Source: Octopus vulgaris | Lineage: Eukaryota | Direction of reading: 5' to 3' | Assembly: GCA_951406725.2 (NCBI GenBank) | Contig: OX597828.1 | Span: forward strand, 43,276,001-43,340,000 | Length of the DNA stretch: 64,000 nt | In this document: positions 9,247-62,314 of the stretch, in pieces | Numbering within the stretch: the stretch's first letter is position 1 | Layout: the number at the start of each line of letters is the position of its first letter | Translations under genes and position numbers: made by a program | Notes under the pieces: model-generated | Database searches by the model: none | Seen by the model: the letters and a program-made list of their open reading frames with translations, nothing else | What the model was told of the DNA's origin: nothing

Positions 9247-9455
9247 GTGGGGAGAGTTTACGAAAAAAACAAAAGACGAAGACAGGTGGTGTACAAAACA
9301 AACAGATGTATTAGTGTAACGCTCAGGAATAGAAAAAGTATTTTACGTTTCGAGCCTACGCTCTTCTACAGATAGGGACACAGAAAAAACAAGGAGAGGA
9401 ACAAGAAGAGAAAAAAGGAGAGAAAAAAGGAGAGAAAAAATGTGTGTAGTGGCTA
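9247..9455 (-). mobile_element. PLE 3'-end fragment with HHR motif (about 9341-9375, core CUGUAGA)
   Basis: Visibly homologous to 41670-41860 (aacaaaagacgaag.caggtgg, gtattagt, cgtttcgagcctacgctcttc); TA-flanked. Confidence 0.8.
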
Positions 9456-9746
9456 TATATGTGTATGTATATCAAATATTATCTATACATATGTTTGTGT
9501 GTGTACGGTGGTCACGTTCGTGCATACGTAGGTCTGTATATATGTGCATGTGTAAGTGCCTCACTGATTTGAAAAGTTTCATTAGGAGAAGACCCGAAAT
9601 AGCTCACAACACTTAAATAGCAAAGATATCTTTAAGTTCCTATCTATCCATATATCTATACAAATACACCGATATAAAAATATATATTTATTGAATTAAT
9701 TAAACGTCTTAGTAAACTGAAAAATGCATGTCATGTACAAATATTA

Positions 9747-10220
9747 TGCGCAGGATTGGCTGTGTGGTAAGTGGCTTGCTTACCGACCACATGGCCCTGG
9801 CTTTACTCCCATTGCGTCGCACGTTGGGCAAGTGTCTTCTACTATAGCCTCGGGCCGACCAAAGCTTTTTGAGTGGATTTGGTAGAGGGAAACTGGAAGA
9901 AGCCCGTCGTATATATATATATATATATATATATATATATATATATATATATATATGTATATATATGCGCGTGTGTGTGTGTGTATGTGTGTGTGGGTGC
10001 GTGCATCTGTGCATCTGCGTTTATCCCCCGACATCGCTTGACAACCGATGCTGGCATGTTTAGGTCTCCGTAACTTACCGATTCGGCAAAAGAGACTGAT
10101 AGAATAAGTACTACGCTTACAAAGAATAAGCTCTGGGGTCGATTTGCTCGAGTAAAGGTGGTGCTCCAGCATGGCCGCAGTCAAATAACTGAAACAAGTA
10201 AAAGAACAAAAATAAAAGAA
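9747..10220 (+). mobile_element. SINE family A
   Basis: Homology to 7039-7452. Confidence 0.88.
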
Positions 10221-12239
10221 TATCTATATGTATATCTATCTATGTATCTATGTATCTATCTATATACGTATATATATATGTGTATATATATTCATATGTA
10301 TGTATGTATATATATGTGTGTGTATATATTTGTATTTATATATATATATTAATATATAGCTGACAATATATTAATATATATATAAATGCATGTATCTATA
10401 TATATGTATATATATATTATATATATATATATATATATATGTATTATATAAATATACATATATATATATATATATATATATATATTATATATACATATAC
10501 ATATATATATATATATATATATGTATATATATATATATAATATATATATATATATGATATATATAGATTTATATATATATGCATATATATATATATATAT
10601 ATATATATATATATATATATACACATATATATACATATTATATAGCATATAACACTATATACATACACGTGCATTCTATGAATACAATCTATATTCAGTC
10701 GCTTGACATTTCCATCTTAATAAGTAGCAGCGAACTTGTTAATTAAGAAAGCGATATAGCTATGATATATGTATATTATATATATATATATATATATATA
10801 TACATGCATATATACATATACATATATATATATATATATATATATATATATATATATGTTTATATATATATGTATTCTAATAAGTCCGTACTTTACACCA
10901 TATGTAAGAGTTCTCTTATTAGAACGGCTGAAGACGATTCTGTTCACTATGTTGCAGCCAGTCGTAATAAGATCGATGATTCCAATCTGTGACCTTAGCA
11001 GTCACAGCTGGAATGTTGTAACTATGATCCGTCTATACAAAGGTTGCCTGGTTCACGCAAGGTTGACGGATGAGGTTTTCATTCCGCTGGTCGTATTCAA
11101 TCAATATTTGAGAAGAACAGGAAAGAAGCAGCATCTTAGTTCTGGTGGTGGATGAGAAAGGGTAAAACTAGCGATCGCACGGTATATGTGTATCTCCTGA
11201 AAACTGGGTGCGTATGTTTATCTGATTTTATTAATGTACGTACACACACCGACACACCCACACACACACATGTGATACTTGACACTTTTAGTGTATTTGT
11301 GTTCCTGCACTGGGTGGAAGTATGTAACGTGTACGTTGTTTAAATTGACTGTTTATGTCAATATACCCTTGTGTCCTAGAGTATATATATATATATATAT
11401 ATATATATATATTTATATAAGTATATTAATCATTCTATATGGTTTTGCACGTACATAGGTACATATAGATAGATACATGCATACATAGAAATACATACAG
11501 AAAGAGAGAAATAAATACAGGTGTATAGGCGGTGAGTGAGAGGTATAGACTTTGATATGTAAAGATAGATGCATACTGATGTATAGTTATTTGCATACCA
11601 AAATGCGAAAATATTAACATATGTATCCAAGGGTGCAGATGTATTATTTAGTAGAGTTGAGGAACTTGTGGAAGACAAGAAGACTTTTAGGCTTGGTGTC
11701 TGATTAATTTTTCTGTATTAAATATATAACATTATTGACATATACGTAAATTTGTGTTCTTGTACACACCCACCACCGCCATGCACACTCCCACACCCAC
11801 ACAAACACATAATACCAGAACATAGACAATATACACACATACAAATATACACACGCACGCACGCAACACGCATAGACAAAGATAACTTTCGCCCACATAC
11901 ATACATAATGCACATGCACACTATGTGCACACGACGACACGCACACACAAATACGCATGTAAACACACCATGTATAAAAGAACACTTCAACTGCTATACA
12001 AAACACACACACACACTTACACACGCACATACATGAAACGCACTTACACCCATTCACACATACACATCCCCATTCACACACCATTCTTACATAGACACAC
12101 AAGCTTGCGCTCCTCTTCTTGTAGGGATCACCATGAATCATCTCCCTTCAAGTCAACCTCTATTATTATCTCCCTTTCATTCAACATCTTTTTTTCCAAA
12201 CCATCGCCATGTTAGACCACTGAACTCAACAGGCTATTT

Positions 12240-12397
12240 ACATTTCCTCAATTTGTTTTCCCTTATTCCTTTCTGTCGAAGAGCGTAAGCTTGAAATATA
12301 AAAAACAATTCCATATATTTCCCGAGCATTAAACTAATCCACTTGCTTGTTGTTCCTACACCTGTTTTCTTCTTTGTTTTTCTAGAAATTTGAACTG
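12240..12397 (+). mobile_element. Diverged PLE 3'-end fragment with HHR motif (12270-12303, core CUGUCGA)
   Basis: ttt CTGTCGA A GAGC gtaa GCTT GAAA TATA aaa. Downstream sequence matches the PLE terminus and ends at (TA)n. The CA-rich 11750-12240 stretch may be more of its 3' UTR. Confidence 0.65.
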
Positions 12398-59106: not shown

Positions 59107-60302
59107 AGTTCTGATTCCCTACCAACATGTTTTCGTATTTGTATTCATTCATATTCTTTTACTCCACCCAAAAACAATGCTTTACTAAAGAGATTTCATA
59201 AAACCGGAATATGTACGAATTTGATCATGGAATATCATGATCACATTCGATAAATATTTATTAATAGTAATTTTCGAAATAATGTCTTCATATACTCACA
59301 GTAAAAATACTCCTAATTAGGTTGAAATAAATATTCAGGTGATTTCCCCCATTTTATGTCATCAAATTATAATAACATTTCTTAAAAATGCATATTTTGC
59401 ATTACTTTGTTTCCATACTCAACAACGGAAAATGTAATTTGATTTAACAATAAATATGTTAACACATCTTCTCTATATATCCGTTTCTCTGTACATAAAT
59501 TTTCTATCTATCTATCTATCTATCTATCTATCTATCTATCTATCTATCTATCTATCTATCTATCTATCTATCTATCTATCTATCTATCTATCTACTTTAT
59601 ACCTATACATATATATATACATATATATATATATTAATACCTCTATATATCCATTTCATTATACATAAATTTTCTTCCTTTCTATCTATTTACTTTAAAT
59701 ATATATATATATATGTGTGTATATTTATATATGTGTATATATATACATATATATGTATACATATATATATATATATATATATATATATATATATATATAT
59801 ATATATATATATATATACATACATACACGCACCACACACTCATACATATATATATATATATATATATATATATAAACACGCACACACATATAAATATATA
59901 TTTTAAAACCTTACATGTCTTTAAGCTAATGAGAAATGACGTTGTCATCCTTCGTAAAATCATAACTACATTTACTTTTAACTTACATGTCCGGTGACCG
60001 CATTTTCGTTGCAACATGAAGGACTCGCCATTCTCTCCCCCGCACAATACTGTTTATAACTTCAAACTATTTGAAGTGCATGCGCATGTGCATAGACAGC
60101 TGCAAGTCGTATCGTGTGTCTCTGTATGCACATCAGTGTATGTCCCTCATTATTTCCCTCCACCAATAAAATTCTATGGAAATGTGTTTTACACACGCAC
60201 ATACACACACACACAAACACACACATACGCATACCCACACTCACACATACAAACACATATACACACTTACACACGCACATATATGCATGTGCGCGTGTGT
60301 AT

Positions 60303-60530
60303 ACTCTTTTATTCTTTTACTTGCTTTAGACATCTGACAGCGGCCATGCTGAAGCACTGCCTCGAAGGGTGTCTTAGTCGACCAAATCGACCCAAGGACT
60401 TAATTCTTGAGCCTAGTACGTATTCTATCGGTCCCTGTTGCCGAACCGCCAATTTGCGTGGACGTAAACAGACCAACACCGGTTGTCAAGCGGCGATGTG
60501 GAACAAATATAGAGTCAAAGACACGCACAC
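60303..60530 (-). mobile_element. SINE family A, 3' part
   Basis: Homology to 7250-7445. Confidence 0.8.
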
Positions 60531-60571
60531 ACACAATCGTTTCGAACCGTCTAGCGTCGTTCCCTCTTGAT

Positions 60572-60677
60572 ATTATCTGAAGAGACACATCTATACCGAG
60601 GGATACACATCAACCTGTTGTACAGCATCACACCCACAAGAGATCGATGCTAGATTGGTCGAAACGATTGTGGTAAT
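60572..60677 (+). ncRNA. Hammerhead motif with extended stem II; triplet GUG, probably inactive
   Basis: ATTAT CTGAAGA GACacaTCTA ... TAGAttgGTC GAAA C gatt G TG GTAAT, followed by AATAAA (60679-60684). Confidence 0.65.
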
Positions 60678-62314
60678 CAATAAAGTCCCTCATTTCTTCC
60701 GTCTCTCACTAATTACATACAAACACACACACACACACACACACACACACACACATATATATATATATATATATATATATATACTCACATCTAAATGAAA
60801 ATGCAGAACTATGTATATGTATATGCATGTGTGTATCAATATCTATATCTCTCTATCTGTCTTTATTTCTCTCTCTCTCTTTCTCTCTCTATATATATGT
60901 ATGTATCAAATAGTGAAGAGAAACTACCTATAACAGATAATTTTACACGCTAGAAAAAGAAGCCAAAACGACGAAAACCACATTTAAGAGCAATTTTCGA
61001 AAGGAATGAAAACTAAAAAACATTTACCTGTTTTTTTTTTATGGTTATTTTTTTAGCAAATAAAATATTTTACCAGGCGAAATTCTCATCAGTAACCGCA
61101 CCATAACATTAACATATAATCTAGAGACACGTGTCTCATCGATATAAGTTTTCAAATTCACCGCGCAAGCGCAGTTTCAGTCGGCCGTAGATGATAAATG
61201 CCGAACAGATCTTCGAAATGCTAAAATCATATACGTAAAAATATATAGGGTAGCGAATATTTTTAGAAATTTCACTGCCAGTGGCCTAGTATGTATAAAA
61301 AGTCAATGGACAACATATTCTCAATATAAAATATTGTACATTTAAACACAAGAGAAACTACATTTAATATGTTGTTTTATACGCTAGAAGAAGCAGCCAA
61401 AACGTCCAAAACTACATTTAAGAACAATTTTCGAAGGGAAGGAAAAATAAAAACTTTTACCTTGTTATTTATTTACGGTTGTACATAGATTTTTTATATG
61501 CATATATGTATATATGTATTTATTTATTTAGCCGCAGGTTTTATGTCGGAGTTATCTCAGTTACCTGAGTTACCTTCTCCTAAACCTGCGGCTCAGTGGT
61601 TACCGATGATGTCGACTTGTTCGTCTTTACGGATTATGGCTGCTGTTGCTTAGTGAGTGGGATTGAATCAGTGCACAGCCTTTCCTCACTTTAAAAAAAT
61701 CTTCTTGCACAGGCATTGCACGATAACAACATTGTTCATGATTGTTGATAGTGCTGTGAGTCTCAACTGAATGGCTGGCTGCAGCCTTAAAAAGCAAATA
61801 AAAGTCTCATTTGATCACAGCACCGATAACAGTTAAGCTTCGTGCAATGGCCATACTCGATAACGAGGGGGAAGCCATCATTTATTCATTTATGTATGTA
61901 TATGATGGCAAGAACTTAGCCTACATTCCCGGACCGGGGAATGCGTTGTGTTCTCCAGCAAAACATTTAATTTTATGTTGCTTCAGCACATTCAACTGTC
62001 TGTGAATATCCTCACGACGGACTGGCACCCTCTTATGATAAATGTTGTGATCTTTATCACACGTATGCCATGGAAACCGGTTACGTGGGCCTAAAAGCAC
62101 TACGAGTAATGTCGAAGTGACTTCGTTCCATCTTTTTGCTTCCTCCATCCTTTTACTTTTCTCTCTCTCTCTCTCTCTCTCTCTCTCTCTCTCTCTCTTT
62201 CTCTAATTTTCATGTCTTATGGGACATAATTTTACATTAGAGTTACCTCTAAACATATCTTGTCGTAAGTTGTCTGATAACTGTAAGTCCTTTATTTCTA
62301 TGTGTATATTTATA

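Follow-up and report, generated by a model that had tools for sequence, protein, structure and literature searches.

The stretch of DNA considered here, termed the window, comprises 64,000 nucleotides (nt) of the Octopus vulgaris genome (contig OX597828.1, positions 43,276,001 to 43,340,000 of the forward strand) and contains twelve motifs with the shape of a minimal hammerhead ribozyme. Examination of these motifs revealed them to be the hammerhead-shaped tails of seven families of Penelope-type jumping genes, or Penelope-like elements (PLEs), a known kind of repeat. The motifs belong to family A (9341, 12270, 41768, and 46262), family B (29917 and 30782), family C (13015), family D (57894 and 58320), and the single-motif families E (18504), F (29160), and G (60572), with each coordinate, as taken from an earlier sequence-only reading of the window, corresponding to the low end of the motif. 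That reading had placed twelve hammerhead folds from about seven families around an intact Penelope-like element; all twelve were located, seven repeat families were counted, and the intact element was found in family A, where a 1077-amino acid (aa) open reading frame (ORF) contains reverse transcriptase (RT) and GIY-YIG endonuclease (EN) regions. The family A features are as follows.

42306..45539, minus strand: intact PLE ORF of family A, from ATG to stop, with RT (DKG, YIDD), a CX4CxxC linker, a C-terminal GIY-YIG region with CCHH, and a low-complexity tail; Neptune/Nematis type.
46165..47467, minus strand: 5' pseudo-long terminal repeat (pLTR), a 5'-truncated copy of the element's own 3' end (end of the EN and 3' untranslated region, UTR), adjoining (TA)n at its 5' end.
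46262..46299, minus strand: family A hammerhead, 5' copy, with the core CUGUUGA (A6U) and a predicted cut after 46267.
41768..41805, minus strand: family A hammerhead, 3' copy, with A6U and a predicted cut after 41773; the element ends at 41671 and is followed by (TA)n.
9229..9424, minus strand: truncated family A tail of the N7=A subfamily, with the hammerhead at 9341-9378 showing A6U and a damaged stem I.
12206..12400, plus strand: truncated family A tail, old and decayed, with the hammerhead from 12270 showing A6U.

In the family A ORF, RVT_1 was detected above the cut-off and GIY-YIG under it (E 0.005), yet the GIY-YIG motif and the CCHH residues are present. The linker (CSRPRCRTC at 828, plus CSLC and two His) fits the CX2-5CxxC/CCHH arrangement of Neptune, which is common to Nematis as well. 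Family A is an EN-containing (EN+) PLE and, judged by these motifs, of the Neptune type. The pLTR is 98.8-99.7% identical in aligned blocks to 41671-42994, with a period of 4,494 bp; a partial tandem with a hammerhead in each pLTR is present in the window, and a matching layout is found at loci L292-L294. The EN region occurs in at least 150 copies at 100% protein identity (150/150 scored), and 26 of 30 EN-identical loci have the family A U6 motif downstream, 25 of which continue into TATATA. The 3' UTR also contains a 122-bp tandem repeat between the end of the ORF and the hammerhead (42021-42304 and 46515-46798).

To gauge chance expectation, a descriptor of the minimal type-I hammerhead permitting at most one core mismatch was applied to the window and to 40 local dinucleotide shuffles serving as controls. 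Nine of the twelve motifs were recovered, as compared to a mean of 0.6 and a maximum of 2 matches in the shuffles, while perfect-core motifs numbered five in the window versus 0.075 per shuffle. The three motifs missed by the descriptor are decayed copies, with stem I being broken at 9341 and 29917, and with G17 and a 3-bp stem II base at 60572; the families to which they belong conform to the hammerhead fold. The topology (stem I, core, extra base, stem II, GAAA, palindromic helix III, UH) is present in nine of the twelve copies and also in the family majority sequences of E, F, and G, the helix III insert of E being an imperfect palindrome.

All of the families are repetitive, ranging from hundreds to more than 15,000 copies. 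Exact-pattern searches of the 2.80-Gb genome counted 15,730 copies of A, 11,864 of B, 2,783 of C, and 473 of D; for E, F, and G, 40 of 40 scored candidates were positive in each case, from 406, 1,810, and 773 candidates, respectively. The canonical core, C3 U4 G5 A6 N7 G8 A9, is kept in families C, D, E, F, and G and in about a quarter of B, and is absent from A (U6) and from most of B (C4). Families A and B differ at the fourth stem I pair (C-G versus G-C) and in loop 2; stems are near-invariant within families, and the other families are unalignable.

Across a 600-kb sample of the genome (60 evenly spaced 10-kb pieces), 42 descriptor matches were obtained, versus 4-12 in five shuffles. In neither the window nor the samples did motif density equal that of the shuffled controls, the outcome that the sequence-only reading had itself named as telling against it. 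The sampled density is about one motif per 18 kb, with an extrapolated genome total of about 160,000 motifs; the previously suggested figure of about one per 5 kb thus does not hold in general, the window being about 2.5 times as dense as the samples. Simple repeats make up 13.9% of the window and 6.5% of the samples. The window also holds an abundant repeat resembling a short interspersed nuclear element (SINE) with an internal (CA)/(TA) tract, with copies at 4814-5021, 7015-7452, 9641-10219, 14152-14575, 27812-28325, 32840-33263, 54356-54747, 57114-57510, and 62337-62880, among others. Several hammerhead tails lie inside the microsatellite of this repeat, which may account for the high local density.

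Families B and D were next considered, with their copies in the window being as follows.

29825..29977, minus strand: family B tail, with a hammerhead from 29917 showing U4C and a damaged stem I.
30680..30898, minus strand: family B tail, with a hammerhead at 30782-30816 showing U4C.
57802..57945, minus strand: inverted family D copy whose end lies at the first RT start, about 130 nt past C3, with a hammerhead at 57894-57936.
58311..58541, plus strand: main family D copy, tail included, whose end lies at the second RT start, about 218 nt past C3, with a hammerhead at 58320-58362; pLTR of a Hydra-clade PLE.

Five of 12 family B junction loci continue into an ORF that is 40-68% identical to the family A ORF of the window, family B being the tail of a PLE that is sister to that of family A. 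For family D, two motifs 5,996 bp apart bracket an 838-aa RT-EN ORF (locus L284). This ORF contains DKT at 128, CTCRDKSNC at 689 (a CxCX5C linker), CYLC at 795 (CxxC), and CRH at 824 (CxH), with KWK where RWK is described; no RT or EN match was found in Pfam. These motifs match those described for the Hydra clade (PMC8557442) and, together with (TA)n insertion, mark family D as a Hydra-clade PLE. As A, B, and D have ORFs of their own, there are at least three drivers, and closeness to the ORF in the window accounts for family A only.

The sequence-only reading had every motif bounded by a microsatellite, evidence that is weak when taken alone, given that 31% of random window positions lie within 150 nt of (TA)4. 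In family C, the (AAT)n is internal. That the elements colonise microsatellites was borne out for A, B, and D, which target (TA)n at a fixed offset, and not for C. Specifically, (TA)3 starts no more than 150 nt from C3 in 24/30 copies of A, 27/30 of B, and 2/15 of C, relative to a background of 26%. Family D ends at one of two fixed points after C3, either at about 130 nt (6/15) or at 215-225 nt (8/15), and the inverted pair in the window has one copy of each type. This tail signature is explained by two RT starts, as reported for another PLE (PMC11167929). At the other end, the 5' junctions of young A copies adjoin TA in 15 of 23 cases, versus a background of 9%, with a few of the 23 being internal breaks, including one among the 15. 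That the 5' junctions also adjoin TA indicates that the microsatellite existed before insertion, and for the same reason the idea of (TA)n arising from the elements themselves, instead of serving as their target, was rejected.

The tandem junction of family A in the window runs past the point at which genomic insertions end, and there shows three features.

46157..46164, minus strand: built-in TTATATAT tract at the tandem junction, at which genomic insertions end; a putative primer-alignment site.
46235..46241, minus strand: helix 5' arm UGAGCGC, part of a conserved helix around the putative RT start site.
46147..46153, minus strand: helix 3' arm GCGCUCA, present only in tandem-junction copies.

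The tract is followed by GCGCTCA, able to pair with a conserved TGAGCGC located 20-30 nt beyond the hammerhead. A short TATA tract occurs precisely at the insertion endpoint in the tandem junctions of all three families (A, B, and D), and in A and B it is enclosed by a conserved 7-bp helix; in D, both ends fall on TTTATA in the template. Searches for the tract followed by RCGCTC, as predicted from the window, were then run on other lineages, yielding 48 junction matches versus 3 in the control for other A subfamilies and 118 versus 27 for family B, where more than half of 100 listed matches represent one stereotyped junction. The young A junction itself occurs in 143 exact copies. Across 30 scored junctions, the last helix pair is U-A in 25 and C-G in five, all of the latter belonging to the subfamily of the window, although the wrong upstream arm was taken in some cases; the change from U-A to C-G is one compensatory event. 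In most A junctions, the helix arm is directly followed by a CACGTG palindrome (46141-46148, minus strand, in the window) and in B by CACACGG, either of which may be part of a pLTR promoter. A switch model, in which downstream GAGCG blocks stem II unless captured by the junction arm, was also considered and set aside, the arrangement being seen in some copies and absent or reversed in others.

Turning to the hammerhead core, position 6 of family A is T in 15,730 copies versus 602 others. The first 100 of the latter comprise 71 C, 19 A, and 10 G, with the 71% C being that expected of transitions. When the core was left free, T6 was found in 96 of the first 100 of 16,712 A copies, a degree of fixation equal to that elsewhere in the core apart from N7, which varied (A26, C20, G12, T42). 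A flank-only profile returned 33 matches, of which 27 were distinct with the core in view; 24 of these have U6. ORFs of U6 subfamilies are 34-85% identical in matched segments (5/20 junction loci), indicating that U6 is old, and it persists into the youngest subfamily. In family B, position 4 is C in 72% and U in 26% of the first 100 copies.

Hints as to cleavage were sought in non-redundant minus-strand insertions starting at a TA tract near the predicted cut. Starts lying 4-14 nt upstream of the cut number 24/94 in young A and 15/192 in B (p 8e-5, or p 0.004 without the microhomology hotspot of A). In B, starts per nt in four zones running from upstream to downstream are about 3.6, 1.4, 9.3, and 5.3, with the maximum immediately 3' of the predicted cut. 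The step in start density from one side of the cut to the other amounts to about 6.6-fold in B, as compared to about 1.5-fold in A. Such counts are no more than suggestive of greater cleavage in B than in A, which perhaps rarely cleaves. Contigs assembled from four sequencing runs revealed nothing bearing on cleavage. Single changes in CUGA are of low activity in a full mutational scan (PMC9901934), and low activity is likewise given for CUGA changes in PMC3088659; a natural A6C hammerhead is slow, yet works in Mn2+ (PMC7151607, PMC3088659). The A6U core likely slows or stops self-cutting.

The remaining families are represented in the window as follows.

12956..13271, minus strand: family C, with a tRNA-like head at about 13196-13268, internal (AAT)n at 13119-13190, a canonical minimal hammerhead at 13015-13056, and an inverted fragment upstream.
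18445..18752, minus strand: family E tail and inverted partial copy, with a hammerhead at 18504-18623, a canonical core, and a 16-bp stem II with a long branched loop.
28999..29354, minus strand: family F tail, with a hammerhead at 29160-29263, a canonical core, and a long stem II.
60563..60723, plus strand: family G tail inside a (CA)n tract, with a decayed hammerhead at 60572-60677 having G17, where most family copies have A17.

The family C head leads into the hammerhead in 12 of 20 loci, and no ORF is present. A B-box-like motif was seen in 10/15 loci and an A-box-like motif in 8/15; ARAGORN called tRNAs at a relaxed threshold only, and the head gave no Rfam tRNA match at E 0.01. Family C, a candidate tRNA-derived SINE, is a non-autonomous passenger with a tRNA-like head and does not target (TA)n. 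A tRNA-headed hammerhead element is also known from Schistosoma, namely Sm-alpha. In the majority sequences of E, F, and G, the core is canonical, the stem II arms are long, and helix III has an insert of six bases. For both E and F, one Hydra-like endonuclease match was found in 14 loci, offering only a hint of a link to such an enzyme, and no ORF link was found for C or G. Links from UTR families to ORFs, as called for by the sequence-only reading, were established for A, B, and D.

Family A has also given rise to short tandem arrays. At locus L296 (G000:C8:18599500-18603500), positions 729-3039 contain five U6 hammerheads with a period of 492 bp. The array represents family A with an internal deletion that leaves no ORF: each unit consists of bases 1-294 and 4296-4495 fused together, and the deletion joint lies off the predicted cut. 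An inverted 5' fragment and a (TA)n end are also present. The array looks like a newly born retrozyme. A second short family A tandem, at positions 1547-2480 of locus L297 (G000:C2:121323000-121326500), has another deletion joint and a period near 468 bp; as the joints differ, such short arrays arose more than once. In terms of the tandem array of short hammerhead-bearing units that defines a non-LTR retrozyme, the window contains only single or inverted motifs, with an array being present at L296. The family A motif was not found in metagenome contigs, a result with little bearing on other animals.

Three further observations concern other repeats and fragments. Hammerhead families outside the window, seen at L148 (8309/8390), L171 (5092/5753), L175 (2569), L140 (7082), L178 (6035), and L145 (1658), include relatives of A and B that have the canonical core, as well as a further C4 core whose stem II is long. 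Within the window, a second repeat of about 184-bp tandem units, unrelated to hammerheads, is found at 5168-5523, 17887-18090, 18755-19076, 40373-40989, and 54155-54325. Finally, a 153-aa open frame at 63105-63566 (minus strand) resembles by eye a fragment of the reverse transcriptase of an RTE-type long interspersed nuclear element.

Taken together, it is quite probable that at least three separate PLEs and one tRNA-headed passenger are involved, with target-primed reverse transcription likely starting from the built-in TATA tract on nicked (TA)n, and with the U6 hammerhead likely being slowed or silent. In such a scheme, the PLE protein would nick (TA)n, whereupon the 3'-OH of the nicked target would anneal to the UAUAUA that the tandem RNA bears 100-200 nt 3' of the hammerhead, and prime reverse transcription there; in A and B, the 7-bp helix would present the annealing site. 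The RT would then pass through the uncut hammerhead and usually drop off early, leaving thousands of short tails. Self-cutting would be dispensable for insertion, allowing a weak core to be tolerated. Hammerhead mutants are reported not to stop PLE insertion in vitro (PMC11167929).

Several points weigh against this scheme. The junction searches demanded RCGCTC, such that the pairing counts lean towards a helix, and the compensation represents a single event; a second compensation test, involving a B subfamily with GAGCGC, gave one chance match and then no junction. Helix probability reached at least 0.5 in 5 of 9 folded junctions. The truncation comparison between A and B involves differing anchors and family ages, with starts clustering at T/A microhomologies. 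Families C, E, F, and G are all without a firmly linked ORF. Finally, the RT start of the anole PLE Poseidon is reported not to be homologous to the cut DNA (PMC11167929), meaning that annealing is not a general PLE rule.

A stronger version, in which the elements carry their own UAUAUA guide, held by the helix in a loop and pairing with nicked (TA)n in the manner of telomerase, and in which the hammerhead of the top lineage is shaped but off on account of A6U, the fold being needed rather than the cut, is tentative and rather unlikely. Were the guide to operate, altering the RNA would retarget insertion.

Targeting could instead be due to protein alone, through the zinc-finger-like linker and the endonuclease, with the TATA of the junction being the inherited scar of an old TA insertion without a role in priming. 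This has been published as a hypothesis for Neptune, Naiad, and Hydra elements (PMC8557442), the ORF of the window has a CX4CxxC linker and that of family D a CxCX5C linker, and a scar would persist, the junction being inherited with the template. On the other hand, the tract is near-fixed in its short length, beside RCGCTC, in lineages with proteins that are 40-80% identical, and recurs at both RT starts of the unrelated family D. Targeting by protein alone is accordingly a serious possibility, if on balance a doubtful one, and both mechanisms could act together.

It is likewise conceivable, albeit somewhat improbable, that U6 hammerheads do function as ribozymes in vivo, with rescue coming from dimerisation, the PLE protein, or a metal such as Mn2+. 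Apart from N7, which drifts across subfamilies with divergent ORFs, the remaining core positions are fixed to the same degree as U6, a pattern that looks like selection on a catalytic fold. Moreover, activity in Mn2+ is known for a natural A6C hammerhead (PMC7151607), cleavage by the hammerhead of the anole PLE is reported to require the PLE protein (PMC11167929), and of 42 young A starts listed, six are compatible with the cut site. Yet no pile-up is seen at the cut in A, where eight of the same 42 starts lie at +6, the step across the cut is the shallower one noted above, and single CUGA changes are of low activity (PMC9901934).

The sequence-only reading in its strong form, whereby a single intact driver would mobilise non-autonomous ribozyme elements, targeted as a set to microsatellites, at one per 5 kb, is very improbable. 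Family C is indeed non-autonomous and short tandem arrays derived from A exist, but A, B, and D belong to three different ORFs, C does not end in (TA)n, and the genome-wide density is about one per 18 kb; in this form, the proposal is refuted. What stands is the presence of many PLE-related, hammerhead-shaped modules, mostly truncated tails of autonomous elements, together with at least one non-autonomous family. Lastly, there is next to no chance that the motifs are random matches in low-complexity DNA, a notion refuted by their excess over shuffles and by each lying in a repeat family with a hammerhead-shaped majority sequence, even if the loose descriptor finds some matches in shuffled DNA and an Rfam scan of the window returned low-complexity noise and no hammerhead family among the 150 of 473 matches listed.

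The proposed hammerhead mobilome is thus real but largely of a known kind; it is set apart by U6 having become fixed in a lineage that amplifies, by a tract that matches the target and is accompanied by a helix, and by the pairing of families. Among the papers listed by literature searches on hammerheads and PLEs, none was seen to describe a U6 family or the junction tract, although supplements or repeat databases could contain either. Two open questions are touched upon, namely how PLEs find microsatellites and what their hammerheads do. Sister families sharing stems and a junction and differing in core (U6, C4, canonical) offer paired natural tests, while the junction tract gives direct experimental access to the question of whether a reverse transcriptase related to telomerase can be guided to its target by RNA. 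Searches restricted to canonical cores would overlook the two largest families described here.

Of known systems, the motifs most resemble the minimal type-I hammerheads of metazoan PLEs (Cervera and De la Pena, 2014, PMC4209133), which are described in thousands of truncated PLE copies as having an extra base, a palindromic helix III, and weak activity as dimers, the nearest of the listed examples being a Neptune motif of Acropora digitifera. Shared traits include CUGANGA with the extra base, a short stem II from G10.1-C11.1, and GAAA-CG-UH, as well as location in pLTRs, sense orientation, and many families with thousands of single copies from truncated elements. Points of difference are the fixation of U6 in A and the presence of C4 in about 72% of B copies, the core variant in the sections of that paper drawn upon here being U3-A8; the 51-71-nt branched stem II loops of E, F, and G; and the extrapolated figure of about 160,000 copies, as opposed to the 2,000-9,000 reported there. 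Natural A6C (phage Bcep176) and U4C (a viroid) are changed at the same core positions and retain low but real activity (PMC7151607, PMC3088659); such natural variants are isolated or uncommon, whereas U6 here characterises a family with more than 15,000 exact copies and C4 one with about 8,500. Family C is like the Schistosoma SINE-like elements in having a promoter-like tRNA head followed by a hammerhead (PMC6765202), yet differs in its minimal PLE-type motif, internal (AAT)n linker, and PLE-style inverted ends.

A microsatellite bias is reported for Neptune, Naiad, and Hydra PLEs (Craig et al., 2021, PMC8557442), and the EN+ elements of the Neptune and Hydra clades share with those described here domain order, linker motifs, partial tandems, inverted 5' copies, a one-sided tail, and the (TA)n bias. 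In that paper, targeting is ascribed to the linker, and the words "microhomology" and "anneal" do not appear in its main text; here, the RNA bears the target repeat at the RT start. As in Poseidon of Anolis (Frangieh et al., 2024, PMC11167929), reverse transcription would start within tandem RNA, 3' of the hammerhead, with two start sites defining the tail (as in D), and cleavage is reported as unneeded for Poseidon in vitro. By contrast with Poseidon, A, B, and D each have a start site that is a match to their (TA)n target. In this respect, the elements of the octopus resemble the EN-lacking Athena and Coprina, which carry short RNA repeats beside the hammerhead that match the genomic target (as given in PMC8557442); yet, where Athena and Coprina are without an endonuclease and use telomeric overhangs, the elements described here have an endonuclease and insert internally.

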